34,969 bases of DNA, from contig CAZXCH010000001.1 of the NCBI GenBank assembly GCA_964639165.1, positions 1 through 34,969 of the forward strand. Reading direction: 5' to 3'. A program made the position numbers and the translations under genes. Below the pieces are notes generated by a model. The model saw nothing but the letters and a program-made list of their open reading frames with translations, had not been told where the DNA came from and searched no databases. The DNA comes from an uncultured Candidatus Saccharibacteria bacterium (GTDB lineage: Bacteria > Patescibacteriota > Minisyncoccia > UBA6257 > 2-01-FULL-56-20). Of this stretch, positions 1-19,781 are shown piece after piece (position 1 is the first letter of the stretch; every line of letters begins with the position of its first letter).

Positions 1-1
1 T

Positions 2-208
2 ACATCGTGCGTAACAACCAACAGATGCCCCTCAACCGAAAACAGCGATGGCACTCCGCTTTATAATTGGACCGCGCCCGGATCGATGGAGGGAGCCGGC
101 AACGGACAAAACATCACGCTTACCTATTCCATCCCGGGAACGTATTCGGTAAGCGTGATCGCCTCCACTGATAATTCGCAATCAAGCTGCCAGATCCACG
201 TACAATGA
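2..208 (+). CDS. 3' end of an upstream gene (partial, start outside window) with a PKD/Ig-like beta-sandwich C-terminus
   Basis: The frame is open from the window edge to TGA 206-208; it is absent from the ORF track because it has no start. ...NWTAPGSMEGAGNGQNITLTYSIPGTYSVSVIASTDN... resembles a PKD repeat. The stop overlaps the next start (ATGA 205-208). Confidence 0.5.
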   Translation, partial: TSCVTTNRCPSTENSDGTPLYNWTAPGSMEGAGNGQNITLTYSIPGTYSVSVIASTDNSQSSCQIHVQ

Positions 209-2229
209 AGTTGAAAAATCCTCTAAAAAATGGGTTGAGGAAGGAAGTAGTCATTACGGCTATTCTCGGTTTCTTTTTAATATTTTTTGGATTAACACGC
301 CCGGCACGTGCTGATGGCTTATTTGATATAAGCGGCTTCACGTCTGGAGCTATTTCGATGTTGATGGAGGGCATCACCTATATTTTGGCTTGGATTTTTG
401 GCGCCTTCATTTCCATAGAAACATGGCTCATTAGTATCGTTTTAAATATCAACGCTAATATACTGCAAACGAGCTTTGTTCAGACCGGATTTTCAATATC
501 GCTTTCCGTTGCAAACCTCGCATTCGTACTGGGGATCATCGTAATTGCGCTTGCAACGATATTGCGAATAGAAAACTACAGTATTAAAAAAATGCTCTGG
601 AAGCTGGTGATTATGGCGATCCTTGTTAATTTCGGCCTCGTAATCATTGCGCCAATCTTTGCGTTCGCCAATGCAACCACGCAGTATTTTCTCAATTCTT
701 TCCCTGGCCAGGGAGGATTCAGTAGTTTTGCGTCAACGATGGCGGGGAAATTCAATCCACAGGCAATGTTTGCCGCAGTCTCGAATCCAACGCCGGGGTC
801 GGGGAATAGTACCGGGCCTTTTGGTCTTTCAGCATCGGGAGTCGGCCAGTCAATAAGCGCGCAGATGGTTCCGATCTTTAGCATGCTTTTTACTGTCGTC
901 GACTTTTTGCTTATTATTTGTGTGCTTGGGGCATTCATTGTTATGTTAATAATAAGATACATCTATATCGCAATTCTCGCGATTCTATTGCCGTTTGCTT
1001 GGGCGTCATGGGTATTCCCAAGTTTCAGCTCGCTGTATTCCAAATGGTGGAATAAATTCCTCCAGTGGACGTTTTTCGCGCCCATCTTTATGTTTTTTCT
1101 TTACTTGGCGCTCTCCACGATTGGAGGAGCCAACAACGCGGATGCCTTTAATTTAACCAATTATACACAGGGGAGTGGAGGCTCTCTCTTTTCCCCTATC
1201 ACAGATTTTTTCGGTGGCATCATAACCCCGATCCTTACCAACTTCCTTCAAGAAGTGGTGCTTGGTGGCATGATTATCGGCGGCATGATCGCGGCAGATA
1301 GCATGGGCGTCAAGTTTGCAGGCACGGTCGTTAACTTCGCGAAAAAACAAGCGGGGACTTTTGCTACTAATCGATGGAATTCGGCCAGACGGCGCGCAAG
1401 TGAAAAGTTGAGATCGATGGGGAAGAAAACCGATGAGCAGGGGAACACCTCTACAACACTCCAAAGAGTGGGCTCAAAGTTCCAGGGATCGCCCTTACCT
1501 TTTGCGAAAACCGTCGGTTCTAAAATTGCAAGTGCAGGCTCCCCGGAGGTGGGCAAAGAAGACCGCATAAAGGATGTTGATAAATATGTAGAAGAAAACC
1601 TAAAGGGGTTGACTAACGACGGCATGCTCGCGCGTGCGAACGGCATTAATGCCATGACAAGCGACCGCGAACTTGCTGCAATTGGGCAGGAATTGTCCAG
1701 GAGAAACCTTACTGCGCCGCCGACCGCTACGACCCCCGGACTTGATCCAACAAAACTGGAAGCCCTTATTAAGGGAGCTGAAAACATGGGCAGCGTCCAG
1801 TCTCTTCTTAACAGCCGTCCAGAGCTAGCGGCACAAACAACTGCTGCTACTCCGAGGATGCTTCCTACCGGGGTTATGGAAACGACTGCACAAGCTATCG
1901 AAAGAGCGATTACAGATGCAGTGAAGAAAATAAAAATCGCTGACATCCCAACGCTTGAAGCTCGATCATTAGGTGACCCCTCTAAACCAGCTGGTACTTC
2001 TCCAACTCCCGAACAGGAGAATATAGCTATAAACATGTCCATTCCACAACTGAACAAGCTGGCTACCGAAGGAGGACCTGGAGCGGCGGCGGCGTATAAA
2101 GATACTATTGAAAGAATGGTGACTGCTGCTACCGCTCCGGGCGCACCCGCACTTCCTCCAGCCACGCTCGCAAAATTAAATAATCTATATACGTACGTGA
2201 GCGCATCGCCTGCGTGGCAGTATATATAA
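205..2229 (+). CDS. polytopic membrane protein, candidate TrbL/VirB6-like T4SS channel component
   Basis: 674 aa with a signal-like N-terminus and about 8 or more hydrophobic helices over the first ~400 aa, then a soluble A/P/T-rich C-terminal region. Topology and position beside the PrgI and VirB4 genes fit the call. There is no motif-level proof. Confidence 0.5.
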   Translation: MKLKNPLKNGLRKEVVITAILGFFLIFFGLTRPARADGLFDISGFTSGAISMLMEGITYILAWIFGAFISIETWLISIVLNINANILQTSFVQTGFSISLSVANLAFVLGIIVIALATILRIENYSIKKMLWKLVIMAILVNFGLVIIAPIFAFANATTQYFLNSFPGQGGFSSFASTMAGKFNPQAMFAAVSNPTPGSGNSTGPFGLSASGVGQSISAQMVPIFSMLFTVVDFLLIICVLGAFIVMLIIRYIYIAILAILLPFAWASWVFPSFSSLYSKWWNKFLQWTFFAPIFMFFLYLALSTIGGANNADAFNLTNYTQGSGGSLFSPITDFFGGIITPILTNFLQEVVLGGMIIGGMIAADSMGVKFAGTVVNFAKKQAGTFATNRWNSARRRASEKLRSMGKKTDEQGNTSTTLQRVGSKFQGSPLPFAKTVGSKIASAGSPEVGKEDRIKDVDKYVEENLKGLTNDGMLARANGINAMTSDRELAAIGQELSRRNLTAPPTATTPGLDPTKLEALIKGAENMGSVQSLLNSRPELAAQTTAATPRMLPTGVMETTAQAIERAITDAVKKIKIADIPTLEARSLGDPSKPAGTSPTPEQENIAINMSIPQLNKLATEGGPGAAAAYKDTIERMVTAATAPGAPALPPATLAKLNNLYTYVSASPAWQYI

Positions 2230-2236
2230 CAAACAC

Positions 2237-3220
2237 ATGGATTCTAAGACGTTTCTCTTAAAAATTAAGGATACTCCGCCCTCCATTCGTACATGGTTTG
2301 CTTCCGGGGAGGTTTCCCTGATGGTTCGCACAATCAACCAGCACTTTAATATACAAAAAGGAAGCGAAACCGTCCTCCCTAAATTATTGGCTCGCTTGGA
2401 AGTGCGTGATATAGCCCCCGATTATTTCGCCGGAGAACTCTCAGAAGAGTTGAAATTGGATCGGGATAAAGCATTGGGTATTTCCACGGAAGTTAAACGA
2501 ACTATCCTAACTCCACTAACAAAAGAATTCTTGGCTTTTGGTGTTGACATCTCCCTTTTAGATAAATTCCAGATCCCCACTATAAAAGACTTAAGTCCGA
2601 GTGCGACCATGGCAATAGTGAACGGTCCGAAAATTATCCAGGATGTGAGCATCACTCCTCCAAAACCTGTGGCGCTCCCCGCTGTCGGTTGGTCAAAAAT
2701 GCCGGCCTCCACATTCTCATCCACGCCCACACCGGTGCCTCCCGTCACGCCGCGACCCATAACCCCGCTCGCGCCGATAGCTCCGGCAGCCCCGGCTGAA
2801 CCTGCCCCCATAATCCTTCACGAGGATACGGCGTTCAAAGCGGTAGAAAAAAATGCGGGCTTTACGCTTGCCCGGCCGGGAGGAGGAGCGGATATGCAAC
2901 TCGGCGGACATGGAAGCTCCTCCGTCCCAACTCCACCGCGGCCGGCGGTTTTGGAATTCGGCGGGGCAAAACCAGCGGCTCCAATGCCGAGCGCAGTTCA
3001 CAATACCGGGCAAAGTGTCCCGCTCTCCGCGATGCCAACGGCCAATACCGGCCCGAGGAGCGTAAGTCAGATTACGCCCGTCGCCGCTATACCGACGCCG
3101 CCGAAACCGCCCGCACCTCCGATGTCGCCAGCGCCGTCTAACATTGTTCCAATGCCGCAACCGCCGCAACCGCCTTCTGCTCCACAATCCGCCAAGCCGA
3201 TCGTTAAGGACTTTCTTTAG
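2237..3220 (+). CDS. hypothetical protein: ~130-aa N-terminal domain followed by a ~200-aa Pro/Ala-rich extended region
   Basis: Long ORF starting 8 nt after the upstream stop. Pro-rich low complexity (PPKPPAPPMSPAPS, PQPPQPP). No recognisable domain. Confidence 0.6.
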   Translation: MDSKTFLLKIKDTPPSIRTWFASGEVSLMVRTINQHFNIQKGSETVLPKLLARLEVRDIAPDYFAGELSEELKLDRDKALGISTEVKRTILTPLTKEFLAFGVDISLLDKFQIPTIKDLSPSATMAIVNGPKIIQDVSITPPKPVALPAVGWSKMPASTFSSTPTPVPPVTPRPITPLAPIAPAAPAEPAPIILHEDTAFKAVEKNAGFTLARPGGGADMQLGGHGSSSVPTPPRPAVLEFGGAKPAAPMPSAVHNTGQSVPLSAMPTANTGPRSVSQITPVAAIPTPPKPPAPPMSPAPSNIVPMPQPPQPPSAPQSAKPIVKDFL

Positions 3221-3287
3221 CAATCGCGCGGCGCAATAGCTTATTCGCAGTGGCAAATCCCGGCTGCTGGCTTTACAATGATGAGAT

Positions 3288-3908
3288 ATGCAGTACCAAG
3301 TTCCACAATTCATTGATACCGAGGATAATCTGGTTGGGCCGTTCTCCCTTCGGCAGTTTGCTTATGTCGGCGCCGCGGCGATCGTGAGCGCCATATGCTA
3401 TTTCTTCCTACAAACATGGCTGTTCGTCATTGTGGCAATCATCGCGATTGGCGGCTCGCTCGCCCTCGCCTTTCTTAAGATCAACGGCCGGCCGCTCATC
3501 AAGGTCATCACTTCCGCTGCTAATTTTTATTGGAAGCCTCAACTTTACGTCTGGAAAGCCGATCATCCGATCATGACGCAGCAAAAGCAGAGGCCTGCTG
3601 CCGCGATGCGCGCGTTGCCTCCGATCGAAGAGAAAAAAGTCGGCCGGGTGGCGACGCATGGCGGCAACAATACCGCATCCGCGCCTCCGGATGTCACCGA
3701 ACGCGAGCTTCCGCCGGTTCAAACCATCGCAAGGGGAGATTCGTTGCACAAGAGCTGGGAAAATCTCCAGACCGGTACGCCGGACGGCGGTGAAACAAAG
3801 AAGACTTCCGACCGGCAATTTCTGGAAAAGAAGATGGCCGAGCGGTATGAGATATTCCAGCGGCTTGGCGGCGATCGCGCGGCGGCGCGGCGCGTGGATT
3901 ATCGCTAA
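3288..3908 (+). CDS. PrgI-family (VirB3-like) small membrane protein
   Basis: The N-terminus MQYQVPQFIDTEDNLVGPFSLRQFAYVGAAAIV followed by two TM helices is the characteristic PrgI-family signature. It lies upstream of VirB4, as in Gram-positive T4SS loci. TACAAT sits at 3274-3279, 8 nt before the ATG. Confidence 0.65.
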   Translation: MQYQVPQFIDTEDNLVGPFSLRQFAYVGAAAIVSAICYFFLQTWLFVIVAIIAIGGSLALAFLKINGRPLIKVITSAANFYWKPQLYVWKADHPIMTQQKQRPAAAMRALPPIEEKKVGRVATHGGNNTASAPPDVTERELPPVQTIARGDSLHKSWENLQTGTPDGGETKKTSDRQFLEKKMAERYEIFQRLGGDRAAARRVDYR

Positions 3909-3929
3909 GAAATATGGGAAAATAAGAAT

Positions 3930-4625
3930 ATGGCTCCAATACAACAACAGGATGCAGGAAATTCCGTCGATCTCGTGGAGGTCAAGGAGATCAAAGAGAA
4001 GACTGTCGTCGTGAAAGACGGAAGCCTTCGTCAAGTTATCATGGTGGGGGGCGTCAATTTTTCCCTCAAATCCGATAACGAGCAGAACATCATCACGCAG
4101 GGATATCAGACCTTTTTAAATAGCATCGATTTCCCTCTGCAGATAGTCATCCATTCCCGGAAGGTGAACATCGAAAAATATTTGGAGAGCCTTATGGCAA
4201 GAAAAGAAGTTGAGCCGTCACCCATCCTTCAAAACCAAATAGAGGAGTATACGAAGTTTGTGAAAGGATTCGTCGAGCAGAACGCGATCATGGAAAAGAT
4301 ATTCCTGGTGGTCGTCTCGTTCTATCCGCTCTCCGGACTTCCTGGCGTCAGCAAGAGCGTTTCCGGATTTCTCCCGTTCCTCGGAAAGAAAAAAACGCCC
4401 GCCGGTGCGGGGCCCGCTTCCGCGCAACGCGCCGAAGAAGAGGAAAGAATGTTCAAAGAAAACCTCGCGCAGCTGAATCAGCGGGTCACCCAGGTGACGA
4501 CGGGATTGCTGAATATCGGGCTGGAGGCAACCGTCCTTGACGACGAACAGCTCGTTGAGCTCTTCTATAATTTCTATAATCCTCAAACGATCGAGCGCGC
4601 CACGGCGCCCGATTCCCGAAAATAA
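3930..4625 (+). CDS. hypothetical soluble protein in the T4SS-like operon
   Basis: 231-aa ORF packed between the PrgI-like and VirB4-like genes. Any resemblance to N-terminal regions of VirB4/TraC-type proteins is weak and unverified. Confidence 0.55.
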   Translation: MAPIQQQDAGNSVDLVEVKEIKEKTVVVKDGSLRQVIMVGGVNFSLKSDNEQNIITQGYQTFLNSIDFPLQIVIHSRKVNIEKYLESLMARKEVEPSPILQNQIEEYTKFVKGFVEQNAIMEKIFLVVVSFYPLSGLPGVSKSVSGFLPFLGKKKTPAGAGPASAQRAEEEERMFKENLAQLNQRVTQVTTGLLNIGLEATVLDDEQLVELFYNFYNPQTIERATAPDSRK

Positions 4626-4635
4626 CAATACGACC

Positions 4636-6372
4636 ATGCCAGAAGGCCAAGAAAAAAACACTTTTGATAACGTAAAAAAGATCATCGCGCCGGCGGGCGC
4701 GCAAGTGTTTCCCAACTACCTGAAGATCGGCGACAAATTGGCGAAGACCTTCTTTGTGTTCTCCTACCCCCGCTATCTTTCTACCGGGTGGTTCGAGCCG
4801 CTCATCAACCTGCCAAACCTCTTCGACGTCTCTATCTTCATCAACCCGGTCGATACCGGGAGCGCGCTCAAGAAACTCCGCAAGAAAGCGGGGCAACTGG
4901 AATCACAAATGAACGAAGAGCAGGAAAAAGGGCTCGTAAGAAACCCCGTGCTCGAGACTGCCATCAATGACGTTGAAGGTTTGCGCGATTCGCTCCAACA
5001 ATCCGAGGAAAAACTTTTTGATACCGGCGTCTATATTACGATCTACGCGGACACCCTTGAGGAACTTGCGCGGCTTGAGAGCAAGTTGGTCACCATGATG
5101 GAAGCGAAGTTGATCTATCTCAAACCCGCTCTTTTTGAACAGCTTGAGGGACTTTCCTCCGTTCTGCCCATCAACGACGACAAACTGCAGATATACTCCC
5201 CGATGAACACGAGCCCTATCTCGTCATTCTTCCCGTTCGTCTCGGAGGATCTTTCGTCAAACCAGGGGATTATGTACGGCATCAACCTTCACAACAACAA
5301 TCTGGTCATCTTCGACCGCTTCTCTCTTGAGAACGCGAACGAGGTGGTGTTTGCAAAGTCCGGTTCCGGCAAATCGTACACAACCAAGCTTGAGATCCTT
5401 CGCGCGCTCATGGCGGGCATCGATATGGTGATCGTCATCGATCCGGAGAATGAATACGGCCGCCTTGCGGAAACGTTCGCGGGAAGTATGTTCAACATCT
5501 CGCTTTCCTCGCATGAACACATCAATCCGTTCGATATCCCGCCGATACCTGAGGGCGAGACCCCTTCCGACGTTTTGCGTTCGCACATCGTGAACCTTGC
5601 GAGTCTGCTCAAGTTGATGCTTGGCAAACTTACCCCGGAGGAGGACTCCATTTTGGACCGCGCGATCACTGAAACGTATGCCTCGCGCGAGATCGTCGCC
5701 GATACGGACTTCACCGGCAAAGAGCCTCCTTTATTGGGAGACCTTGAAACGATCCTGCGGAATCTTGAAGGGGGAAATGAGCTCGCCGAGAAGCTCTATA
5801 AATACACAAAGGGTAGCTTTGCCGGTTTTTTGAACCAGCCCACCAACATTGACGTCAACAACCGCCTGATCATCTTCTCCATCCGCGACCTCGAAGAAGA
5901 GCTCCGCCCGCTCGGCATGTTCGTCGTGCTCAACTTCATCTGGAATCTCATCCGCGCGAAGCTCGCCAAACGCCTGCTCTTCATCGACGAGGCGTGGATC
6001 ATGATGAAGAACGACGACAGCGCGACGTTCCTGTTCGGCCTCGTCAAGCGCGCGCGCAAATATTATTTGGGCGTCACCACGATCACGCAAGACGTGGAAG
6101 ACTTTTTGCGGTCGCCGTACGGGCGCCCGATCGTCACCAACTCTTCTCTTCAGCTGCTCTTGAAGCAGGCGCCCGCCACGATTGATATTCTCGCGAAAGC
6201 ATTTGACCTCACCGACGCGGAGAAGAATTTCCTTCTTGGCGCCGCCGTCGGCACCGGCATCTTCTTTGCCGGCAAGCGACACGTCGCCATCCAGATCGTC
6301 CCGTCATATTACGAAGACCAGATCATCACCACGAATCCCGAACAGCTTCTCGAGGAGAAAAAACAGGCCTAA
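4636..6372 (+). CDS. virB4: VirB4/TraC/PrgJ-like type IV secretion ATPase
   Basis: Walker A is FAKSGSGKSYTTK and Walker B is RLLFIDEAW. The N-terminal pattern YPRYLSTGWFEPLINL...DVSIFINP is typical of VirB4 homologues. The start was moved from the ORF-track position 4537 to ATG 4636, 11 nt after the upstream stop. Confidence 0.8.
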   Translation: MPEGQEKNTFDNVKKIIAPAGAQVFPNYLKIGDKLAKTFFVFSYPRYLSTGWFEPLINLPNLFDVSIFINPVDTGSALKKLRKKAGQLESQMNEEQEKGLVRNPVLETAINDVEGLRDSLQQSEEKLFDTGVYITIYADTLEELARLESKLVTMMEAKLIYLKPALFEQLEGLSSVLPINDDKLQIYSPMNTSPISSFFPFVSEDLSSNQGIMYGINLHNNNLVIFDRFSLENANEVVFAKSGSGKSYTTKLEILRALMAGIDMVIVIDPENEYGRLAETFAGSMFNISLSSHEHINPFDIPPIPEGETPSDVLRSHIVNLASLLKLMLGKLTPEEDSILDRAITETYASREIVADTDFTGKEPPLLGDLETILRNLEGGNELAEKLYKYTKGSFAGFLNQPTNIDVNNRLIIFSIRDLEEELRPLGMFVVLNFIWNLIRAKLAKRLLFIDEAWIMMKNDDSATFLFGLVKRARKYYLGVTTITQDVEDFLRSPYGRPIVTNSSLQLLLKQAPATIDILAKAFDLTDAEKNFLLGAAVGTGIFFAGKRHVAIQIVPSYYEDQIITTNPEQLLEEKKQA

Positions 6373-6381
6373 CCCATTCCT

Positions 6382-7245
6382 ATGGCCGAAAGACCGGAAC
6401 CAAAGATATCCACATCGGAGGCAGTCCTCATCGGGATGTTTTTGTTGATCCTCGACGCGATCGATCTAATCCCCATCGCAGGCGACCTTACGGATGTCGC
6501 AGGCGCCCCATTGATCCTCTACTACTATACAAAGCATATCAACGGCGTTGCTTATATTGTTTCCGAGATTTTGGATCTCATCCCTATTGTTCAAGAGATT
6601 CCCTCGCGGAGCATCGTTTGGTGGGGGACGGTCGCATTTGATAGATTTGCGCCCGCAAAAGTTGAAGAGGCGGTGGAAAAACTTGGCGAAGAGGCCGAAG
6701 GCAAAGAGGGAGGCGGGGAATTGGAAGGCGAAGGAGGACTTGGCGCGGAAACATCAGAAGGCGGCCAACGCGGCGCTTCTTCGGCAGAAAGGGTTGAAGA
6801 GGAAGGAGTGCGAGGCAGCGGGACAAAGGAAGGGGTTCAGGATGAAGAGTCAAGACAAAACACCGAATCCGGAACCACCGAGAAAGAGGCGGCGGATATG
6901 AGAGAAGGCGGAGAACCGGGTGGCGAAAGCGAAAGTCCGGAAGAAAATGGGGGCCAAAAGAACGGTAACGGTGAAGATATTTCAGCCACGGAGAGCGAAG
7001 AGGAGCCAATGGCCGTGACCGAAGGCCAGCTCTTCACTCAGTCGGGCGATGAAAGTTCCTCCTCCACCGAAGAGAAAGGAGAAGATGAGGAGGCTGTAGA
7101 AGAAAAGGCTCGTGCCGCGCCACCGAGACACTCTGGGAATACTGTTAGCATTGATAGTTCCAAGAAATGGCAACGAAACCAGCGACGTAAAAAAACCAAA
7201 CCAAGCACGGCCGACGTTATCCCCCCGGAAGAGATGGCCGCATAG
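6382..7245 (+). CDS. membrane-anchored protein with a ~190-aa Glu/Gly-rich polyacidic tail and a basic C-terminus
   Basis: Hydrophobic N-terminal ~100 aa, then EEAEGKEGGGELEGEGGLGAE... low complexity, ending in KKWQRNQRRKKTK. It starts 10 nt after the VirB4 stop. Confidence 0.55.
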   Translation: MAERPEPKISTSEAVLIGMFLLILDAIDLIPIAGDLTDVAGAPLILYYYTKHINGVAYIVSEILDLIPIVQEIPSRSIVWWGTVAFDRFAPAKVEEAVEKLGEEAEGKEGGGELEGEGGLGAETSEGGQRGASSAERVEEEGVRGSGTKEGVQDEESRQNTESGTTEKEAADMREGGEPGGESESPEENGGQKNGNGEDISATESEEEPMAVTEGQLFTQSGDESSSSTEEKGEDEEAVEEKARAAPPRHSGNTVSIDSSKKWQRNQRRKKTKPSTADVIPPEEMAA

Positions 7246-7284
7246 CGCTTCCCCGATTTGAATTTGCTATACTAAAGGAAAGAT

Positions 7285-8001
7285 ATGTCCGCTCGTTCTA
7301 CTATCCGAAAAGTGGTCTTCCTGGGGCTTTTGGTTTTTTCTGCCGTTTTCTTCTTTTCGTTCTGCGGGGCCCATGCCCAAACCGCATCGTCGCCCAAGTT
7401 TTTGCTGACCTGGAAGGCATCCAATAGTTATATCCCTTCGTTCTATGAGGGAAAAGCACTCCCGTCCTCGGGAGGCACGAAGATCACTGCATCGCTTGAG
7501 CTGATCTCAAACGGAAAGCTCGTCAATCTTAGTAACCAAAATATTTATTGGTATGAGGATGAAATTTTGGTAGGAGGTGGGGCCGGGGTGCAGCAAGTGA
7601 CATTTACTCCATTTGGAACGCCGCCCAGCACCCTTGTGTTAAGCGTGCAGCTCCCCCAATATAGTGGCGGCTATCTCACCCACACCGTCAACATTCCTTT
7701 CGTAACCCCTTTGGCGGTGATTGACGCCCCGTATCCAAACCAAGAATTTTCCACAAATCTTCTTACGCTACAAGGGCTACCGTTCTTTTTCAATGCAACA
7801 TCAACGAACAACATTTCGTTCACGTGGTCGGTCAACGGCCAAACCGGAGCGAACGCGGAAAATCCTCAAGTGGCCGAGATCAGTCTCCCACCAGGAACCC
7901 CGGGCGGAACGAATTTTGGCGTCTCGCTTTCTATCAGCAATTTCCAAGGGGCCACGGTCGCAAACACGAATCAGGAATTCACATTCCAAAATCAATTATG
8001 A
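7285..8001 (+). CDS. secreted beta-rich protein of unknown function
   Basis: Signal peptide MSARSTIRKVVFLGLLVFSAVFFFSFCGAHAQ. An AGGAAAG motif lies upstream. The stop overlaps the next start (ATGA at 7998-8001). Confidence 0.6.
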   Translation: MSARSTIRKVVFLGLLVFSAVFFFSFCGAHAQTASSPKFLLTWKASNSYIPSFYEGKALPSSGGTKITASLELISNGKLVNLSNQNIYWYEDEILVGGGAGVQQVTFTPFGTPPSTLVLSVQLPQYSGGYLTHTVNIPFVTPLAVIDAPYPNQEFSTNLLTLQGLPFFFNATSTNNISFTWSVNGQTGANAENPQVAEISLPPGTPGGTNFGVSLSISNFQGATVANTNQEFTFQNQL

Positions 8002-8666
8002 TGAACTTTCTTTTTTTGGTGGCACATGCGGTTACCATCAGCACCGCCATCCCCGGCACCAATCCGAATAGCACGAGCTCCTCGCCGGGGGCGTTCGTGG
8101 CGAACTTCTATCAATTCGCATTGATGATCGGAGGAATCCTTGCCTTGGGTGCCATCGTGTACGGAGGGGTCAGATATGTGGCTTCCGCAGGCAATCCTTC
8201 CGCCCAAAGCGATGGGAAGGAATGGATCTGGGGGGCATTGATCGGACTCCTGCTCCTTGCCGGAGCCTATCTGGTGCTGAACGTCGTGAATCCCCAGCTC
8301 GTGAACCTCAATCTGCCTACCCTGAATCAGATATCGGCGGTGAATAATACGACGGTGGCGCCGGGAAATTATACAACCGCCTCAACGTGCCAGGCTACTT
8401 CCAATGGAGGTTCGACCGGAACATGTCAACCCGACGCAAGCGGTAAAAATCAAAACTGCTGTAATCTTAACGGACTGGGGATCTGCACTACCGACTCGTG
8501 CTCGGATCTGTCAAATTTACAATGTCGGGCCACTTCTAATGGAGGCACAACCGGATCTTGCCCAAATCTTAATGGGGCGGCCCAAAATTGTTGTTATTCT
8601 AGCATCGATGATAGTGCGATCTGCGTAACCGAGACGTGCGCCGATTTTGCCGCCGAGGCCCAATAA
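7998..8666 (+). CDS. VirB2/TrbC-like T4SS pilin with two C-terminal six-cysteine modules
   Basis: Hydrophobic leader, then two TM helices (FYQFALMIGGILALGAIVYGGVRYV and WIWGALIGLLLLAGAYLVLNVV) joined by a short polar loop, which is the pilin hairpin topology. The C-terminus carries a tandem C-x11-C-x9/10-CC-x7/9-C-x4-C repeat. The start was trimmed to ATG 7998, coupled to the upstream stop. Confidence 0.6.
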   Translation: MMNFLFLVAHAVTISTAIPGTNPNSTSSSPGAFVANFYQFALMIGGILALGAIVYGGVRYVASAGNPSAQSDGKEWIWGALIGLLLLAGAYLVLNVVNPQLVNLNLPTLNQISAVNNTTVAPGNYTTASTCQATSNGGSTGTCQPDASGKNQNCCNLNGLGICTTDSCSDLSNLQCRATSNGGTTGSCPNLNGAAQNCCYSSIDDSAICVTETCADFAAEAQ

Positions 8667-8682
8667 TATATATAATAGATTC

Positions 8683-10026
8683 ATGAAACGCTATCTCTAC
8701 ATCATCATCGGCATCGTGGTTGCGGCAGTGATCGTAATTTTGGTTCTTTTCTTGATCAAAAATCGTGCGGCTGGACCTTCTCTCGTTACGTCGGGCACGG
8801 GGTCTCTGCCCGCCGCCAACACGCAGGGCATTGGCGGTTCCTCGTCGACGGGGAGCGAAAGTAGTGGTAGCGGGACACTTGGCCTTGCGGTCATAACGGG
8901 GAGCAGTACGGCCGCCGCGAGCGGACAGATGACCCCGCAGAAGTTTGGTGTCTTATCGAACAATCCGGTCCTTACTTATTTCGTCGATCCACACAACAAC
9001 ATAACCGCCATTGAGCCGACGGGCGAGATATTCACTATCTCAAACGGACAATCCACTATAGTGAACTCTTCAACGATCAACGACATCATTTCTGCAAGTT
9101 TCTCGTATGACGGTAAAAAAATACTCGTAAACTATGGCGCCTCTTCTAACCCGCAATCGGGGGTGTTCGATCTTGCGGCAAACACGTGGACATCGCTTCC
9201 GCAAGGCATGACGTCTCCTCAATGGTCGCCCGTCAGCAACTACCAGATCGCATATCTCGTGACTACCAACAACGGAAAGCTCGCGCTCGCGACTATAGAC
9301 GCCTCAAATCTTAAAGCAGCCCCTTCGGTCCTTCTTTCACTCAATGCGAACGACATCGCCCTCCAGTGGCCGACAAAAAGCGAATTTATCCTCTCGGACA
9401 GGCCGACGTCAAAGAGCCTTGGTTCGGTGTGGGCATTCAATTCTCTAACGGGGACGTTCTCCCCGGTTCTCTACGAGGTTTCTGGCGCAGAAAGCACCTG
9501 GAGTAATAATGTCGCGTTCCCCTATGGACTTCTATTCTCCACCGCAAACGGAGGGAATCGCTTGCAGTTGCAGGCGCTTTCAGGACCTCTTCCCATTGAG
9601 TCGCTTACTTTTGCCACGCTTCCGTCAAAATGCACATTTAATACCGAGCTGATGCCCATCGCCACATCCACGACTGCCACTTCTTCAACAAGCACAACAA
9701 CGTCAACGGCCACTTCATCCACAAAGAAGGCAACGACACCCGCGAAGGCTGCTCCAACCTCTACCCCGTACCTTGCACTTTATTGCGGCATCCCGCGAAG
9801 TTCAAGCGGGTTCTCTTCTGCGCATCTTCCCGATGATTATAATATGATGGCTCTCTTTACTTCGGACAATCTCTATAAGGTGAACACTGAGACGGGAGTG
9901 ATACAACCGCTTTGGAACTCCCCAACGCAGAACATGGACGTCTCGGATCTGAAATTCTTCAATAACGCGCTGTTCTTCGTCAACCGCTACGATAATAAAT
10001 TGTACGGACTCACATTCGCTAATTAA
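8683..10026 (+). CDS. N-terminally anchored surface protein with a beta-propeller-like (TolB-like) body and a Thr/Ser-rich insert
   Basis: TM anchor YLYIIIGIVVAAVIVILVLFLI, then an S/G linker and repeated FSYDGKKIL / WSP-type strands. A low-complexity stretch reads ATSTTATSSTSTTTSTATSS. TATAAT at 8671-8676 lies exactly 6 nt before the ATG. Confidence 0.55.
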   Translation: MKRYLYIIIGIVVAAVIVILVLFLIKNRAAGPSLVTSGTGSLPAANTQGIGGSSSTGSESSGSGTLGLAVITGSSTAAASGQMTPQKFGVLSNNPVLTYFVDPHNNITAIEPTGEIFTISNGQSTIVNSSTINDIISASFSYDGKKILVNYGASSNPQSGVFDLAANTWTSLPQGMTSPQWSPVSNYQIAYLVTTNNGKLALATIDASNLKAAPSVLLSLNANDIALQWPTKSEFILSDRPTSKSLGSVWAFNSLTGTFSPVLYEVSGAESTWSNNVAFPYGLLFSTANGGNRLQLQALSGPLPIESLTFATLPSKCTFNTELMPIATSTTATSSTSTTTSTATSSTKKATTPAKAAPTSTPYLALYCGIPRSSSGFSSAHLPDDYNMMALFTSDNLYKVNTETGVIQPLWNSPTQNMDVSDLKFFNNALFFVNRYDNKLYGLTFAN

Positions 10027-10040: not shown

Positions 10041-10075
10041 AAAAAACACCCGCTTCATCGTCGGGTGTTTTTTAT
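10041..10075. terminator. bidirectional intrinsic terminator between convergent genes
   Basis: AAAAAACACCCG-cttcatcgt-CGGGTGTTTTTT, with an A-run and a T-run flanking the GC stem. Confidence 0.75.
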
Positions 10076-10509
10076 TCCAATATCGGCTTGATGATGACAT
10101 ATCGTTCCTTTCCCTCGCCCGCACTTTCGGTCTTCACCTCCGGGTGGACAGCAAGTTCCATATGCACCAATCTGCGTTCGTATGAGTTCATCGCCGGAAG
10201 CGCGACTTCCTTCTTTGTGACGGCCGCCTTCTTCGCCGCAGCGCGGGCGAGTTCCGCGATCAGTCGCTCGCGGTCGTGCCGGTAGTTATTGATGTCAAGA
10301 AATATCGCTTCGGTCTGATTTTTTTTGGCCACCATCTGGAGGATATGGTTCACCGCATCCACGATTGCCGGGAGGTTTTCCTTCACCATCTCTTGGTCCT
10401 CGTAGATAAAAACCGATCCCCTCCTCTCGTCTATTTTGATCTCCAAACGATAATCGGTGAACCCGATGAGGTCTAATGTTTTTTTAATGTATGATTCCCA
10501 GTTGTCCAT
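10072..10509 (-). CDS. jag: Jag/KhpB-type KH + R3H RNA-binding protein
   Basis: R3H motif region (ERRLVHMELAVHPEVKTESAGEGKERYVIIKP). It occupies the conserved position downstream of yidC. Confidence 0.75.
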   Translation of the reverse strand: MDNWESYIKKTLDLIGFTDYRLEIKIDERRGSVFIYEDQEMVKENLPAIVDAVNHILQMVAKKNQTEAIFLDINNYRHDRERLIAELARAAAKKAAVTKKEVALPAMNSYERRLVHMELAVHPEVKTESAGEGKERYVIIKPILE

Positions 10510-10626: not shown

Positions 10627-11340
10627 TTATACGCCGTACTTTTTCTGCAAATGCTTGTTCACGAAGTACTGCTGGACGGCGGAAAAGAGCGCACTCATAA
10701 GCCAATAGAGACTGAGGGCGGCAGGGAAATTATAGAAAACGAGGATGGTGATGATCGGACCGACGAACACCATCTGGCGGGCGATCTTTTCCGCCTGCGT
10801 CGGCGCGCTCGTGTTATTAGGGTTGCGATAAATGGCGAGGCGCGCTTGAAGATATTGCGCGAGGGCGGCCGCGAGAATGAGGATAAGATTAGGATTCGCG
10901 AGATTGATAAAACCAAGGAAGACGGTATTTATTTTTTCTGGCGTCGCGATGAAGGAATAAAGTCCCGTCAGTTGAGCGGTGCCGACGCCCGAACGGATGA
11001 CCCAGTAGAAGGTGAGAAGGATCGGGATTTGGATGATGAGAAGCAATATCCCGGAGAAAGGATTGACGCCGTGTTCTTTGTAGAGCTCCATCAACGCCTT
11101 TGCCTGCTGATCACGGTCGTCTTTGTGTTTCGTCTGGATATCTTTTATCTTCGGCTGAATGCGCTGCATCAGCATTTGCTGTTTCGCCCCGGTATGGAAG
11201 AACGGATAGAGGATGAGGCGGATAAAAAGCGTCACTAATATGATCGCGATGCCGAGATCGTGGAACCCAATCGTTTGATAGAAAAAAATAAGTAGGTTGA
11301 GGATTGGCCGGTAGAGTATCTGCTGATAAAGATAGACCAT
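10627..11340 (-). CDS. yidC: membrane protein insertase YidC (short form)
   Basis: 237 aa with 5 TM helices. YidC/Oxa1-type sequence and the conserved rnpA-yidC-jag order. Confidence 0.85.
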   Translation of the reverse strand: MVYLYQQILYRPILNLLIFFYQTIGFHDLGIAIILVTLFIRLILYPFFHTGAKQQMLMQRIQPKIKDIQTKHKDDRDQQAKALMELYKEHGVNPFSGILLLIIQIPILLTFYWVIRSGVGTAQLTGLYSFIATPEKINTVFLGFINLANPNLILILAAALAQYLQARLAIYRNPNNTSAPTQAEKIARQMVFVGPIITILVFYNFPAALSLYWLMSALFSAVQQYFVNKHLQKKYGV

Positions 11341-11345: not shown

Positions 11346-11666
11346 TTATTTTAATTGTGCTTTCGTAAATGCTTTGGCAAGTTCTTCTTGAAACTGCTTT
11401 TTCGTAAGGCGATTCACGCCACGCGAAACTATTATAAGGATATCATTTCCCGTTGTCGTTTGATTCCTAAGCCCGGCCAACACCTGTCTCTTCCAAAAAT
11501 TTCTTTTTACCGCTGTTTTATGGACCGACATCCCCACCACCACACCGATCCGCGCGTTCCCGACGGTGTTCTTTTTTGTTTTTAACAGGAAAAACGGGGT
11601 TGGGATTGTCTTATATCCTTTCGCCCGAAACTGATCCGAGGAGAGACGCGCTGTTTTAGCGGCCAT
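11346..11666 (-). CDS. rnpA: ribonuclease P protein component
   Basis: The motif HKTAVKRNFWKRQV matches the RNase P protein RNR motif. It lies directly downstream of rpmH. Confidence 0.85.
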   Translation of the reverse strand: MAAKTARLSSDQFRAKGYKTIPTPFFLLKTKKNTVGNARIGVVVGMSVHKTAVKRNFWKRQVLAGLRNQTTTGNDILIIVSRGVNRLTKKQFQEELAKAFTKAQLK

Positions 11667-11684: not shown

Positions 11685-11819
11685 TTATACGGCTAATTTC
11701 TTCCTTCCCTTCGCGCGGCGACGGGAAAGAACGCGGCGGCCGGTAGGCGTTGCCTGGCGGACCAAAAAGCCGTGAGTTGTCTTTCGTTTTTTCTTCTTGG
11801 GGTTGTATGTGAACGACAT
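11685..11819 (-). CDS. rpmH: 50S ribosomal protein L34
   Basis: Hand translation gives [44 protein letters not shown] (44 aa). It is too short for the ORF track, and the overlapping 161-aa ORF 11656-12141 is spurious. Confidence 0.9.
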
Positions 11820-11987: not shown

Positions 11988-13343
11988 ATGGACCTTGAAC
12001 AAATGTGGCAGTCGACGTTGGGGGAGATGGAGGTTCAACTGACGAAGGCGCATTTTGCGACGTGGTTAAAAAACAGCCGACCGATCGATAAAAAAGATGA
12101 TACGCTATTTGTCGCGCTCCCAAGTAATTTTGCGAAAACATGGGTAGAGGAAAAATATCAGAAAAATATCATCGGCATCGTCCGGAACATGGACACGTCG
12201 GTCAAAAAGATAGAATTTGTGGTGGGAAATAAGAGCCTCCCCCCCAGCAAGGCCGACGCCGCCACAAAAGACACGCCAAACAGCACCGGCGCCGAGCTTG
12301 ATTTCAATAAAACCGATCCGGAAACAGGGCTGAACCCAAAATATACCCTCTCCTCGTTCGTTGTCGGCCCTTCGAATGAACTCGCGTTCGCCGCTGCCGC
12401 AGCGATCACGGAAGGCCCCGGCAAAAAATATAATCCATTCTTTATTTATGGCGGCGTCGGCTTGGGAAAAACACATCTTATCCAAGCGATTGGTAATGAA
12501 ATCGTCGCAAAATATAAAAACAAGATAAAACCCAAATACGTTTCCTCGGAACAGTTCACGCGCGATATTGTGTGGGGGTTGCGAAACGACCGCATCGAGA
12601 GCGTAAAGAAAAAATATCGCGACGTTGATGTGTTGATCATCGACGACATCCAATTCATAGGGGGGAAAGAAAAGACCGAAGAAGAGTTTTTCCATACTTT
12701 TAACGCTCTCTACGAAAGCAACAAACAGATCATTATTTCATCCGACCGGCCGCCACAATCACTGCCAACCCTCCAGGAACGCCTTAGGTCGCGTTTTGAA
12801 GGCGGCCTTATCACCGATGTGTCTTACCCGGAATACGAGATGCGCGTAGCGATCATCCGCAGCAAACTTCAGGAGATGAACCGGAAACTCTCCGATCCGG
12901 TAGTGGATCTCATCGCGAAGAAGCTCAGAAAGAACATCCGGGAATTGGAGGGGGTCCTTAAAAAGATCATATTTTATGAGGAACGGAAGCAGACCGAGAT
13001 CAGTATTAAGATGGCCGAGGAGATCATCGAAAAGACTACCCAAAACCTATCAAAAAGGGTTGCCGACTCCCAAATATTGAAAGCGGTCGCCGAGTTCTTT
13101 GGCATCACCGTGGAGGATCTTGTAAGCCATAATCGCCGTAAAGAAGTGGTGGAGCCACGTCAGATTGCAATCTATCTTCTTCGGGATATCTCGGACCTTT
13201 CCTATCCGTATATTGGTGAGAAGCTGGGGAGAGATCACACCACAGCCATCCACTCCTACGAAAAGATCAACCAGGAAATCAACAGGAATCCCGCACTTAA
13301 TCAAAAGATATTAACAATAAAGGATATCATTTATAAGAGTTAA
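11988..13343 (+). CDS. dnaA: chromosomal replication initiator DnaA
   Basis: Walker A is GGVGLGKTHL and Walker B is VLIIDDIQF. The C-terminal DNA-binding domain contains HTTAIHSYEKI. Confidence 0.95.
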   Translation: MDLEQMWQSTLGEMEVQLTKAHFATWLKNSRPIDKKDDTLFVALPSNFAKTWVEEKYQKNIIGIVRNMDTSVKKIEFVVGNKSLPPSKADAATKDTPNSTGAELDFNKTDPETGLNPKYTLSSFVVGPSNELAFAAAAAITEGPGKKYNPFFIYGGVGLGKTHLIQAIGNEIVAKYKNKIKPKYVSSEQFTRDIVWGLRNDRIESVKKKYRDVDVLIIDDIQFIGGKEKTEEEFFHTFNALYESNKQIIISSDRPPQSLPTLQERLRSRFEGGLITDVSYPEYEMRVAIIRSKLQEMNRKLSDPVVDLIAKKLRKNIRELEGVLKKIIFYEERKQTEISIKMAEEIIEKTTQNLSKRVADSQILKAVAEFFGITVEDLVSHNRRKEVVEPRQIAIYLLRDISDLSYPYIGEKLGRDHTTAIHSYEKINQEINRNPALNQKILTIKDIIYKS

Positions 13344-13476: not shown

Positions 13477-14589
13477 ATGAAATTTATCGCGATACGGGCA
13501 AACATCAAGGATGCTATTTCAGTGATTGAGAAAGCGGTTGGGGAAAACACCAACCTCCCAATATTGAAAAATATTCTTATTGAGGCGGAGGATAACACCA
13601 TTACTTTTACCGCCACCAATCTTGAAATTGCGATAACGCACCGTGTCGCGGGAAAGGTGATTGAGAACGGGAAACTAACCATCCCACTTACCCTTTTTTC
13701 AAGCCTTATTGGGAACATCCAAAGTGACCGGTTGAATTTTGAGAAAAAGGAAAGTAACCTCGAGATTGCCACGGATAATTACAGCGCGGTGATCAATGGT
13801 ATGCCGGCCGACGATTTCCCCATCACCCCAAAAATAAAAAATCTTGAAAATTATATCGAGATAAAAAGCGTTTTTCTTAAAGAAGCCATCCAGCAAGTTA
13901 CGGTCGCGTCGCAATATTCAGACCTTCGCCCGGAACTAAACAGCGTCTTGTTTAATTTCTCACTCGAAAACCTCATACTTGCCTCCACTGATGGTTTCCG
14001 TTTGGCGGAAAAATCCATCCCATCGAATATTTTTAGCGTAAAAGGGAAAGAGCCGTTCAAAATACTCATCCCGCTCAGGACGAGCCTTGAGGCCGCGAGG
14101 ATTATGCGCGACGACGAAGTGGTGCGGATATACCAGGATGAGAACCAAGTTCTGTTTAAAACCGATCAAACCGAGATGATATCCCGCCTGGTGGAGGGTA
14201 GCTTCCCGGACTATTCCGCGATCGTTCCCCATGAGTTCGCTGCGGAAATCGTGGTGGAGCGGGACGAATTTTTAAGCGCGATAAAGCTCGCCGGTGTGTT
14301 TGGGCAAAAAAACAGCGAGGTAAAAATAAAGATCCATCAGAATAAGAAAGCGATAGAGATCAATTCGGCGGATCAAGCGCTCGGTGAGAACAATCATATT
14401 CTTCCGGCAAAAATAAAAGGCGATATTCCCGAGGTATTTTTCAATTGGCGCTATCTTTCCGATCCGATGAAGGGCATTAAAGCGGAAGACGTGTTCCTCG
14501 GCCTTCAGGAGGATGCGGGCCCGGCACTTATCCGTTCGGTGAGCGATCAATCGTATTATTACGTCCTCAAGCCTATTTTAAAATCCTAA
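13477..14589 (+). CDS. dnaN: DNA polymerase III beta sliding clamp
   Basis: 370 aa with a typical clamp N-terminus (LPILKNILIEAEDNTITFTATNLEIAI). It follows dnaA. TATAAT at 13465-13470 lies exactly 6 nt before the ATG. Confidence 0.9.
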   Translation: MKFIAIRANIKDAISVIEKAVGENTNLPILKNILIEAEDNTITFTATNLEIAITHRVAGKVIENGKLTIPLTLFSSLIGNIQSDRLNFEKKESNLEIATDNYSAVINGMPADDFPITPKIKNLENYIEIKSVFLKEAIQQVTVASQYSDLRPELNSVLFNFSLENLILASTDGFRLAEKSIPSNIFSVKGKEPFKILIPLRTSLEAARIMRDDEVVRIYQDENQVLFKTDQTEMISRLVEGSFPDYSAIVPHEFAAEIVVERDEFLSAIKLAGVFGQKNSEVKIKIHQNKKAIEINSADQALGENNHILPAKIKGDIPEVFFNWRYLSDPMKGIKAEDVFLGLQEDAGPALIRSVSDQSYYYVLKPILKS

Positions 14590-16718: not shown

Positions 16719-16775
16719 AAGAAGTCCCTTTATTTTACCTCTTTTCCTCTTTTTCGTCCCGATTTTTTAATTTTG

Positions 16776-18067: not shown

Positions 18068-18096
18068 TTGCTTGCATTATATCGGCGCGGTATCAT
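18068..18096 (+). promoter_or_regulatory. pilB-type ATPase promoter
   Basis: TTGCTT-17 nt-TATCAT, then 8 nt to ATG 18105. It overlaps the divergent yebC -10 element. Confidence 0.5.
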
Positions 18097-18104
18097 CAAA
18101 GCAA

Positions 18105-19781
18105 ATGCTCGACGCACCTCAAAAAGACCTTACCGAGAAGCTCGCAAAACTGCGGCGTGACGGGGAAGAGCGTGCCGCCGAGCGGCTCGCCGAGAAGCTG
18201 GGGCTTTCGTATGTGGACCTGGCGAAGATCCCCGTATCACTCGATGCGGTAAGGATATTGCCGGAGACCGAGGCGAAGGACGCGAAGGTGGCCGCCATCG
18301 AGCTGAAAGCGAAAAAAGTAGCGCTCGCGGCAATCAACCCCGAGCTTCCCGCCACAAAAAAAGCGCTCGAAGAACTCGTCGGAAAAAAGTATGAGGTGAA
18401 AGTCGTTGTGGTTTCCCCGTCAAGTATGGAGGCCGCATGGCGCTTTTATCAATTCGTGAAACCGGAAACGGGAAATATCACGGGAAAGGTGGAGATACCT
18501 CAAGAGCGCCTCGACGCATTAAAGGCAAAACTGGTGACGATCGATGCGGTCCATAAGGAGATCGGTGCGCTCCCGCTCGCGAATGTTTCTCCGGTAGCGT
18601 TGATTGAGATCATCCTGGCGGGCGCGATGGGCTTGCGTGCGTCGGATATTCACACCGAGGCGGAAGAGAAGAAAGCGAAGATCCGTTTCCGCATCGACGG
18701 GTTGCTGCACGACATGTTCGACGAGATCCCGCTCGATGCGTATCACACGTTCGTGTCGCGCATCAAACTTCTTTCCGAGATGAAGTTGAACGTTCGCGAC
18801 GCGGCGCAGGACGGCCGCTTCACGATCGGGCTTGGGCAAAAAGATATCGAGATGCGCGTATCCGTGATCCCGGCGGAGTTCGGCGAAACGATCGTCATGA
18901 GAATTCTTGACCCGTCCGCGACGATGGTGACACTGCCGCAGCTTGGGCTTCGTGCGGACAACCTCGCTCTTGTTATGAAGAAAATATCCCAACCGAACGG
19001 GTTGATATTGAACACCGGCCCGACGGGTTCCGGAAAAACAACGACACTCTACGCATTCCTGCGCACCATGAACGATCCGACGATGAAGATCATCACCCTG
19101 GAGGATCCGATCGAGTATCGCATTGATGGTATTGAACAGACACAGATCGACGAGGAGGCGGGATATACCTTTGGCAACGGCTTGCGGGCCATCGTGCGGC
19201 AGGATCCGGATGTGATCCTTGTCGGCGAGGTACGTGACCTTGAGACGGCGGACATCGCGCTCGAAGCGGCGCTCACGGGGCACTTGGTGTTATCCACGCT
19301 TCACACGAACGATGCCGTGGGAGCCGTGCCGCGTTTGATCAATCTTGGCGTGAAGGCGGTGAGCATCGGGCCGGCGCTTTCGCTCGCGATAGCGCAACGT
19401 CTCGTGCGCGTGTTGTGCAAGGAGTGTAAAAAGGAGGCTCCGGTGGATGGACCGACAGCGGAGAAGATAACCAAACTCCTCGCCGCGCTGCCGGCGAAGG
19501 TGGATAAAAAAGTTTATGACGGCTATAAGATCTACGCGCCGGTGGGCTGCGAGAAATGCAATGGCATCGGATACAAAGGTCGCGTCGGTGTATTTGAGTT
19601 TTTAGAAGGCGGCCCGGATTTGGAGAAGACGATTTTGCGCGAGGCATCGGAGGTCTCGCTTCGCGAGGTTGCGCAGCGGCAGGAGATGGTCACTATGCAG
19701 CAGGACGGCATCCTGAAAGTACTCGAAGGGAAGACGACGTTTGATGAAGTGACGGGAGCCACCGGAGACTTGGTGTGGTAA
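18105..19781 (+). CDS. pilB: GspE/PilB-family type II secretion / type IV pilus assembly ATPase
   Basis: Walker A is GPTGSGKTTT, Walker B is ILVGEVRD and the His box is LSTLHTNDA. A tetracysteine motif reads CKEC...CEKC. The start was chosen at ATG 18105 rather than the ORF-track position 18072, based on promoter geometry. Confidence 0.85.
   Translation: MLDAPQKDLTEKLAKLRRDGEERAAERLAEKLGLSYVDLAKIPVSLDAVRILPETEAKDAKVAAIELKAKKVALAAINPELPATKKALEELVGKKYEVKVVVVSPSSMEAAWRFYQFVKPETGNITGKVEIPQERLDALKAKLVTIDAVHKEIGALPLANVSPVALIEIILAGAMGLRASDIHTEAEEKKAKIRFRIDGLLHDMFDEIPLDAYHTFVSRIKLLSEMKLNVRDAAQDGRFTIGLGQKDIEMRVSVIPAEFGETIVMRILDPSATMVTLPQLGLRADNLALVMKKISQPNGLILNTGPTGSGKTTTLYAFLRTMNDPTMKIITLEDPIEYRIDGIEQTQIDEEAGYTFGNGLRAIVRQDPDVILVGEVRDLETADIALEAALTGHLVLSTLHTNDAVGAVPRLINLGVKAVSIGPALSLAIAQRLVRVLCKECKKEAPVDGPTAEKITKLLAALPAKVDKKVYDGYKIYAPVGCEKCNGIGYKGRVGVFEFLEGGPDLEKTILREASEVSLREVAQRQEMVTMQQDGILKVLEGKTTFDEVTGATGDLVW

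Follow-up and report, generated by a model that had tools for sequence, protein, structure and literature searches.

The first 10 kb of a 34,969-nucleotide stretch of DNA from an uncultured Candidatus Saccharibacteria bacterium (assembly GCA_964639165.1, contig CAZXCH010000001.1, positions 1 to 34,969; hereafter the window) raise the question of why a bacterium should keep the genes of a conjugation-like machine beside its probable origin of replication. Ten open reading frames (ORFs) on the forward strand (1..10026, +) form a cluster resembling a type IV secretion system (T4SS). The ultra-small Patescibacteria account for much of the diversity of bacteria and grow attached to cells of other microbes. 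In such a cell the cluster could be part of a mobile element, a decaying leftover or a working apparatus. We assign a probability of about 0.85 to the last of these, namely a chromosomal T4SS that was derived from monoderm conjugation machinery of a type similar to MPF-FATA (mating pair formation, FATA), is no longer mobile, and serves host contact or macromolecule transfer rather than conjugation.

The T4SS gene cluster is real and intact. Its ten ORFs are co-directional and closely packed, as a first-pass annotation of this DNA had described, and are unbroken in six independent assemblies. From gene 1 to gene 10 the intergenic distances are -4, 7, 67, 21, 10, 9, 39, -4 and 16 nt, and the ATGA stop/start overlaps previously listed at 205 and 7998 are both present; the upper limit of 66 nt given earlier for the gaps differs from the largest of them by a trivial single base. 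Scans for promoter- and terminator-like sites across the cluster gave counts not above those of shuffled sequence, so its description as one operon rests on spacing and co-orientation. Five of the ten genes encode core T4SS parts and three more encode proteins with recognizable folds; the earlier statement that more than half of the proteins have no recognizable function was overstated.

The VirB4 ATPase (578 aa; 4636..6372, +) scored 410 bits (1.8e-122) on the NCBIfam model conju_CD1110, for which the cut-off is 325, and aligned to positions 186-733 of the 752 in that model. It also matched the Pfam families P-loop_TraG, AAA_10 and DUF87. Both Walker A (AKSGSGKS at residue 240) and Walker B (LLFIDE at residue 447) are intact, and together with the CD1110 match they bear out the original VirB4 assignment. 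The closest solved structure is the C-terminal domain of VirB4 from the Firmicute Thermoanaerobacter pseudethanolicus (PDB 4AG5, 5.8e-40). The best NCBIfam models for the protein are of MPF-FATA types (CD1110 and Mbov_0397), whereas the VirB4_CagE subfamily model gave 106 bits (cut-off 643), CedB 32.8 bits (cut-off 700) and CedD 15 bits. Missing from the protein are the N-terminal ~185 positions of full-length models.

The preceding gene (3930..4625, +), whose stop codon lies 10 nt ahead of virB4, encodes a 231-aa protein that had been listed as unknown. It matched the NCBIfam models VirB4_plasma at 7.2e-11 (model positions 101-218) and TrsD at 8e-6, VirB4_CagE at 5.4e-5 (positions 19-119) and CD1110 at 8e-5 (positions 17-113), and it carries the precomputed Pfam assignment TraC-like, PF26593. 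Judged by these matches, the protein is TrsD-like and homologous to the N-terminal part of VirB4, and is thus a known component. Because the matched model positions are complementary, this protein and the 578-aa VirB4 together tile a full-length VirB4. Sequence and profile searches of the TrsD-like protein against solved structures gave nothing useful.

A split ATPase with overlapping raw ORFs (4537-4625) might be a frameshifted or pseudogenised VirB4. This was ruled out by the synteny scan, in which one genome per species was taken and 80 loci with VirB4 56-94% identical were collected. In 78 of 78 loci trsD and virB4 are two ORFs; every one of the three possible relative frames occurs, and the median distance between the two is 6 nt. 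This demonstrates that they are an old gene pair and not the product of a frameshift, and the pair also fits the known pairing of TrsD with VirB4.

The PrgI/VirB3-like small membrane protein (206 aa; 3288..3908, +) was confirmed as first called, with a Pfam PrgI match of 6.1e-9 (36.8 bits, cut-off 27). Its transmembrane segments, at residues 23-42 and 44-67, are followed by a hydrophilic C-terminal extension. The gene is found directly upstream of trsD in 74 of the 80 loci.

The VirB2-like T4SS pilin (222 aa; 7998..8666, +) likewise agreed with its initial assignment: Pfam T4SS_pilin (PF18895) was matched at 2.2e-8 (34.5 bits, cut-off 26.6) and the NCBIfam Mbov_0395 pilin-like model at 0.0023. 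The protein has a signal-like N-terminus, two hydrophobic helices and a 95-aa C-terminal tail (approximately nt 8379-8663) in which two tandem six-cysteine modules with C-C-CC-C-C spacing can be seen (Cys 131-168 and Cys 176-214). No Pfam family matched this tail. The VirB2-like domain is conserved across loci (44-77% identity), and the tail ranges over about 40 related loci from absent to ~250 aa, with 0-32 cysteines and total protein lengths of 117-363 aa. It differs even among genomes with VirB4 at least 92% identical.

The polytopic protein encoded at 205..2229 (+) consists of 674 aa, with about seven hydrophobic segments in residues 1-370 followed by a hydrophilic C-terminal domain of ~300 aa. 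Its earlier designation as VirB6/TrbL-like stood in part: the protein itself matched no VirB6 model in Pfam or NCBIfam and no PDB sequence, while seven of its 42 aligned relatives matched Pfam TrbL/VirB6 (best 5.5e-7). Other homologues, with E-values reaching 1e-57 and lower, carry the precomputed assignments PF04610/PF19590. We therefore take it as a putative extended VirB6, an assignment made through family members only. Sequence and profile searches of this family against solved structures were not useful.

Five genes remain. The 3′ end of the first gene of the cluster (1..208, +) contributes 68 aa to the window, and these matched the PKD domain PF00801 at 8e-6 (26.2 bits, above the Pfam cut-off of 23.5), in keeping with the PKD-like label first given to it. 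The full protein has 736 aa (locus L001, 7794-10004) and comprises an N-terminal membrane anchor, a long stretch rich in Ser, Thr, Ala and Gln, and a C-terminal part that contains Cys and closes with the PKD domain; a match to DUF4141 was sub-threshold, and nothing useful was obtained from solved structures. In 32 related loci the PKD gene precedes the VirB6-like gene.

Two genes encode low-complexity proteins whose composition was as first described. The 327-aa product of 2237..3220 (+) is 17% Pro, has no predicted transmembrane segment, and consists of a structured N-terminal part of ~130 aa and a low-complexity tail. No family match was found for it or its N-terminal domain, and solved structures gave nothing useful; its ORF was called as a gene in all six independent assemblies. 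The 287-aa product of 6382..7245 (+) begins with a hydrophobic part of ~95 aa and continues as a poly-acidic Glu/Gly-rich tail, the whole being 17% Glu and 5% Asp. It had no match in Pfam or NCBIfam. Both proteins evolve fast: tblastn detected homologues of the Pro-rich protein in just 16 of the 80 loci and of the acidic protein in 18.

The 238-aa protein encoded at 7285..8001 (+) had no match in Pfam, NCBIfam or PDB sequences. Its AlphaFold2 model (mean predicted local distance difference test score, pLDDT, 85.8) shows a helix at residues 4-25 followed by two all-beta domains, and the best Foldseek matches were tandem fibronectin type III/immunoglobulin (FN3/Ig) modules at 2.4e-8. A family profile search found 2267 representative clusters at E<=1e-3 and 347 at 1e-30; nearly all members are 220-240 aa long and match end to end. 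The gene is located downstream of virB4 in 67 of the 80 loci. According to the model, the protein is a conserved, membrane-anchored accessory component of predicted tandem Ig/FN3-like fold, belonging to no named family. By topology this bitopic protein was the best candidate for VirB8, and it was rejected as such on the basis of the AlphaFold2 and Foldseek results, which indicate two Ig/FN3 sandwiches and not an NTF2 fold.

The last gene of the cluster (8683..10026, +) encodes a 447-aa protein that had been described as an anchored beta-propeller-like protein. The description was borne out by the AlphaFold2 model (mean pLDDT 85.3), in which an N-terminal transmembrane helix and a disordered Ser/Gly linker precede a propeller with a Ser/Thr-rich insertion. 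Foldseek matched it to beta-propellers (prolyl oligopeptidase, WD40 and TolB) at 7e-9 to 5e-7, and the family profile weakly matched TolB blades (6e-4). The gene is present in 39 loci. A VirB8-like (NTF2) fold was absent from both modelled proteins, the 238-aa and the 447-aa.

All 80 loci of the scan are found in metagenome-assembled genomes of Patescibacteria, labelled Paceibacterota, Parcubacteria, Minisyncoccia, Liptonbacteria or Nomurabacteria and in some cases auto-labelled Saccharibacteria. Gene order was the same in every sufficiently long locus: ksgA, the PKD gene, the VirB6-like gene and, further on, PrgI, TrsD and VirB4 are followed on the same strand by the Ig protein, the pilin and the propeller; next come jag, yidC, rnpA and rpmH on the opposite strand, and then dnaA and dnaN, again in the direction of the operon. 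Wherever the sequence of a related genome extended far enough, the slot between ksgA and jag was filled, and this order is kept in about 80 Paceibacteria species. Two loci depart from the plain arrangement. L014 (approximately 15128-20918) has ~5 kb inserted between jag and yidC, and L056 has two long pilin-like genes (12700 and 14947) and an expanded region downstream of virB4.

Comparison of the closest genomes shows that evolutionary rates differ greatly within the operon. In these genomes VirB4 is 91-94% identical and DnaA 88-95%, whereas the VirB6-like and PKD proteins are 30-49% identical. The contrast was measured in the same genome pairs (L007-L013), in which VirB4 behaves like DnaA and DnaN. 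These data bear on the view that the cluster is a decaying, non-functional leftover, for which one could cite the missing VirB8 and VirB1, the split VirB4 and the two low-complexity genes. However, the ten ORFs are intact in six assemblies, the TrsD/VirB4 split is kept in all 78 loci, the catalytic motifs are intact and VirB4 is conserved like DnaA. Decay is refuted by this conservation, and we regard it as scarcely credible.

Another alternative is an integrative and conjugative element (ICE), or the remnant of one immobilised recently, with its relaxase, coupling protein and integrase located outside the window. In favour of this, the proteins most similar to VirB4, PrgI and TrsD are encoded by ICEs and plasmids of Firmicutes and Mollicutes. 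The first-pass annotation had itself pointed to such genes immediately upstream, accompanied by flanking repeats, as the sign of an ICE. The 10 kb upstream were recovered from public contigs carrying an identical protein set. None of these genes was seen there; the region encodes a NERD/UPF0102 protein, a DksA-like zinc finger, a ComM-type Mg-chelatase, a LysM protein, UvrD, UbiA and KsgA, and then the 736-aa gene.

On the other side the cluster is followed, as had been stated, by jag (10072..10509, -), yidC (10627..11340, -), rnpA (11346..11666, -), rpmH (11685..11819, -) and dnaA (11988..13343, +), with dnaN (13477..14589, +) beyond, the last two marking the probable origin region. The 25 kb downstream of the cluster contain housekeeping genes: PBP1a, RuvC, YebC, a PilB-type ATPase, RuvB, TsaE, a 5′-3′ exonuclease, a histidine kinase, CTP synthase, HolA, S20, RuvA, a Mur ligase, a beta-CASP RNase, a permease and tRNA-Arg. 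The ~1-2 kb recovered beyond the right end of the window encode a DUF5667 protein and a factor of the sigma-70 family with r2/r4 domains, and no type IV coupling protein (T4CP).

Neither a relaxase nor a coupling protein (VirD4/TcpA) nor an integrase gave a family match in ~45 kb (main window ORFs plus the 10 kb upstream). Cell-wall hydrolase families had no match among the main window ORFs scanned, and the VirB11 family had none anywhere in the window or the 10 kb upstream. The absence of all these genes had been claimed for the window, and it holds for the ORFs scanned. The cluster lacks bracketing direct repeats, those seen being short, imperfect and due to chance; no tRNA gene brackets it or lies upstream, and an Rfam scan gave tRNA-Arg only. 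The GC content of the cluster is that of its flanks.

Since mobility genes, repeats and tRNA are absent and the same slot is occupied in about 80 species, the cluster is chromosomal and vertically inherited and is not an ICE. The upstream genes, the repeat and tRNA scans and the ksgA-jag synteny thus uphold the first-pass annotation's central proposal of a chromosomal, non-mobile T4SS-like apparatus beside the origin region. With housekeeping genes only on both sides, and with a VirB4 whose divergence tracks that of DnaA, the ICE hypothesis is largely refuted and retains very little probability. For this locus conjugation, like decay, is effectively excluded.

A T2SSE-family ATPase of the window was considered as a candidate VirB11. 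It is encoded at 18072..19781 (+), carries an MshEN domain and scored 462 bits as PilB against 39 bits as VirB11, and is thus a PilB/GspE-type ATPase. It stands alone between yebC/ruvC and ruvB, no adjacent pilC- or pilM-type genes being recognized.

Several other features of the flanks were recorded. The ruv genes form no operon: ruvC (17054-17536, -), ruvB (20157-21212, +) and ruvA (28839-29486, +) are scattered over 12 kb and both strands. The 5′-3′ exonuclease (22947-23915, +) is a stand-alone protein with the Pol I-like N-terminal domains only and no polymerase domain. A lamin-tail-domain protein with a C-terminal hydrophobic segment is encoded at 21928-22521 (+); its raw ORF overlaps that of tsaE (22376-22945), and translation of tsaE probably begins farther downstream. 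On the upstream side, three partly palindromic AT-rich copies of a 39-nt repeat, spaced 105-116 nt, occupy the intergenic region between the NERD/UPF0102 gene and the dksA-like gene (L001 381-640, ~17 kb upstream of window position 1).

Is this a new system? It is most probably the relaxase-free Patescibacteria-clade T4SS already described in 2023-2025. In a survey of 2,407 Patescibacteria assemblies, Quinonero-Coronel et al. 2025 (PMC12102498) reported the same system with the same gene set and the same origin-proximal location. VirB4 was found in 2,417 of 3,035 genomes, most sequences forming one clade nested in MPF-FATA; TrsD was its commonest partner, with PrgI/VirB3, VirB6 and VirB2-like pilins nearby (PMC12102498). 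VirB8 and VirB1 were seldom detectable, relaxases were nearly absent, and T4CP genes were seldom near virB4 (PMC12102498). In Paceibacteria and Microgenomatia dnaA, dnaN, rnpA, ksgA and rpmH were abundant near virB4, for which the authors suggested a gene-dosage benefit of origin proximity (PMC12102498).

The present cluster shares with that clade an MPF-FATA-like VirB4, an adjacent TrsD, PrgI/VirB3, a putative VirB6 and a VirB2-like pilin, the lack of a nearby relaxase or T4CP, and a chromosomal position beside dnaA, dnaN, rnpA, rpmH and ksgA (PMC12102498). Nothing essential differs; VirB1 has been reported with Paceibacteria virB4 (PMC12102498), whereas none is recognizable in this operon. 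Membership in the clade is suggested by the best matches of VirB4 and by the fact that the 80 closest genomes all belong to Patescibacteria. The novelty implied by the first-pass annotation was therefore not sustained, as the missing relaxase, the co-option and the proximity to dnaA, dnaN, rnpA, rpmH and ksgA had all been published (PMC12102498; PMC10633639). What is added to published work is the variable Cys-rich pilin tail, the rate contrast within the operon, the unnamed tandem-Ig family, the anchored TolB-like propeller and the invariant direction toward dnaA; the survey (PMC12102498) is silent on orientation and head-on geometry, on Cys-rich or C-terminal pilin extensions and on Ig, propeller or PKD partners.

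Another close counterpart is the T4SS of Southlakia epibionticum ML1 (SEML1_0006-0019; PMC10633639), in which transposon sequencing by Wang et al. 2023 showed epibiotic growth to require both the T4SS genes and the pilin array (PMC10633639). It is also Gram-positive-like and has VirB2-like pilins (PMC10633639) and no recognizable relaxase or coupling protein (PMC10633639; PMC12857230), and its low locus tags suggest that it too is origin-proximal (PMC10633639). It differs in that six divergent pilin genes form an array and virB4 is followed downstream by genes for a peptidase and a lysozyme (PMC10633639), whereas the operon described here has just one pilin gene, whose product carries a variable tail, and encodes no hydrolase.

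With the MPF-FATA conjugative T4SSs (Clostridioides difficile CTn2/CD1110, pGO1 Trs and pCF10 Prg) the cluster shares a VirB4 above the CD1110 cut-off, partners of PrgI and TrsD type and, as expected of a monoderm, the lack of a VirB7/9/10 outer-membrane core. Those systems, however, reside on plasmids or ICEs with a relaxase, a T4CP, a VirB1-type hydrolase, VirB8-like proteins and adhesins, and without VirB2 pilins; the present one is chromosomal, has none of these components among the genes analysed, and has a pilin.

From these parts a working scheme may be proposed, in which the pilus-building steps of VirB4, PrgI and VirB6 are drawn from established T4SS biology. VirB4 and TrsD, the latter supplying the N-terminal part of the former, would be docked at the membrane via PrgI and would extract pilin from it. 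Polymerisation on the VirB6 platform would then turn the pilin into a pilus or a tube. The variable Cys-rich tail of the pilin and the anchored Ig, propeller and PKD proteins would face outside, where they may contact the host of the epibiont.

What such a machine would move, and in which direction, is a separate question. One answer is that it exports protein effectors, injecting or releasing them into the host bacterium, and receives its substrates from a VirD4-type protein encoded elsewhere. Effector export is what most non-conjugative T4SSs do, and Wang et al. propose that the S. epibionticum T4SS may export proteins instead (PMC10633639). VirD4 homologues are commonly found far from virB4 in Patescibacteria, 5,713 of them in 2,918 genomes (PMC12102498). 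However, no T4CP was found within 45 kb here, no candidate effector or chaperone genes are recognizable in the operon, and S. epibionticum, the only Patescibacterium yet studied by genetics, can dispense with its T4CP homologue but not with its T4SS (PMC12102498). Because of this dispensability and the lack of a nearby T4CP, the essential activity is probably independent of a coupling protein. We consider effector export unlikely, though it remains a serious contender.

A dedicated nucleic-acid importer, feeding a nucleotide-auxotrophic cell in the manner of Helicobacter ComB or archaeal Ced, would have the same minimal gene set. The Ced (CedA/A1/A2/CedB) and ComB systems likewise combine a pilin-like protein, a polytopic protein and a VirB4-like ATPase with no relaxase or coupling protein, and the weak similarity of VirB4 to CedB and CedD reflects shared ATPase ancestry. 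A recent preprint on a cultivated Minisyncoccota parasite describes feeding on host RNA and tubular structures, possibly T4SS pili, at the parasite-host interface (bioRxiv 10.64898/2026.06.21.733656). The affinity to Ced is weak, however: VirB4 reached 410 bits on the Firmicute conjugative model CD1110 and 33 bits on CedB (cut-off 700), and ComB possesses a diderm VirB7-10 core. In S. epibionticum loss of comEC abolishes competence and transformation and leaves the cells viable, so that ComEC-dependent DNA uptake is not the essential role (2025 review, PMC12857230). No nuclease or DNA-binding component is recognizable in the operon. Import as the dedicated function is, in our estimate, about as doubtful as effector export.

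Our own preference, held tentatively and at slightly less than even odds, is for pilus building and/or uptake from the host over effector export. The host-RNA feeding and the possible T4SS pili of the cultivated relative would fit such a role by analogy, without proving it. A bolder version, which we regard as a long shot, is that a coupling-protein-independent pilus or conduit takes host material, possibly nucleic acids; that the hypervariable, disulfide-rich pilin tail is displayed on the pilus surface, sets host specificity and replaces the multi-pilin arrays of Saccharimonadia; and that the direction toward dnaA has been selected and not merely inherited. Selection on direction could reflect replication-linked regulation or faster evolution of surface genes.

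Certain points weigh against the overall reading of a non-mobile T4SS for host contact or transfer. The essentiality data come from Saccharimonadia, a class other than Paceibacteria (PMC10633639). The VirB6 assignment is transitive, as the window protein itself fails to match any VirB6 model; the operon yielded neither a VirB8-like nor a VirB1-like component, and the Pro-rich and acidic genes remain uninterpretable. Most Patescibacteria genomes, moreover, carry VirD4 homologues distant from virB4 (PMC12102498).

The direction of the operon relative to replication depends on the position of the chromosomal origin (oriC). Cumulative GC skew falls over 1-10 kb, levels out in a trough (10.6-18 kb) and then climbs steadily as far as 35 kb. 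The dnaA-dnaN spacer is 133 nt long, AT-rich, and contains two DnaA-box-like 9-mers with one mismatch each (13352-13360 and 13405-13413). The sole perfect DnaA box, TTATCCACA, is located not beside dnaA but at the 3′ end of ruvC (17084-17092, -). One-mismatch boxes numbered 15 against 5.0 expected in shuffles (~3x), one pair lying at 20172/20183. An oriC near dnaA is plausible and is not pinned by these data, the boxes being weakly informative and the skew a broad trough rather than a point.

An origin anywhere in the 10.6-18 kb trough would have the operon transcribed toward it and therefore head-on to replication. The earlier claim of head-on transcription accordingly holds if oriC is near dnaA, as the skew trough and the two spacer boxes suggest. 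The operon runs toward dnaA in all 51 loci that reach dnaA, and this constancy may simply be inherited synteny.

The T4SS belongs to the small number of systems whose necessity for the epibiotic lifestyle has been established by genetics, in one Saccharibacterium. The window adds to this not a new kind of system but a clean and complete example from Paceibacteria, accompanied by some 80 relatives in which synteny is kept. When manipulation of Paceibacteria becomes feasible, the pilin tail, the tandem-Ig component, the TolB-like propeller and the dnaA-ward gene order would be reasonable targets for work on structure and host range.

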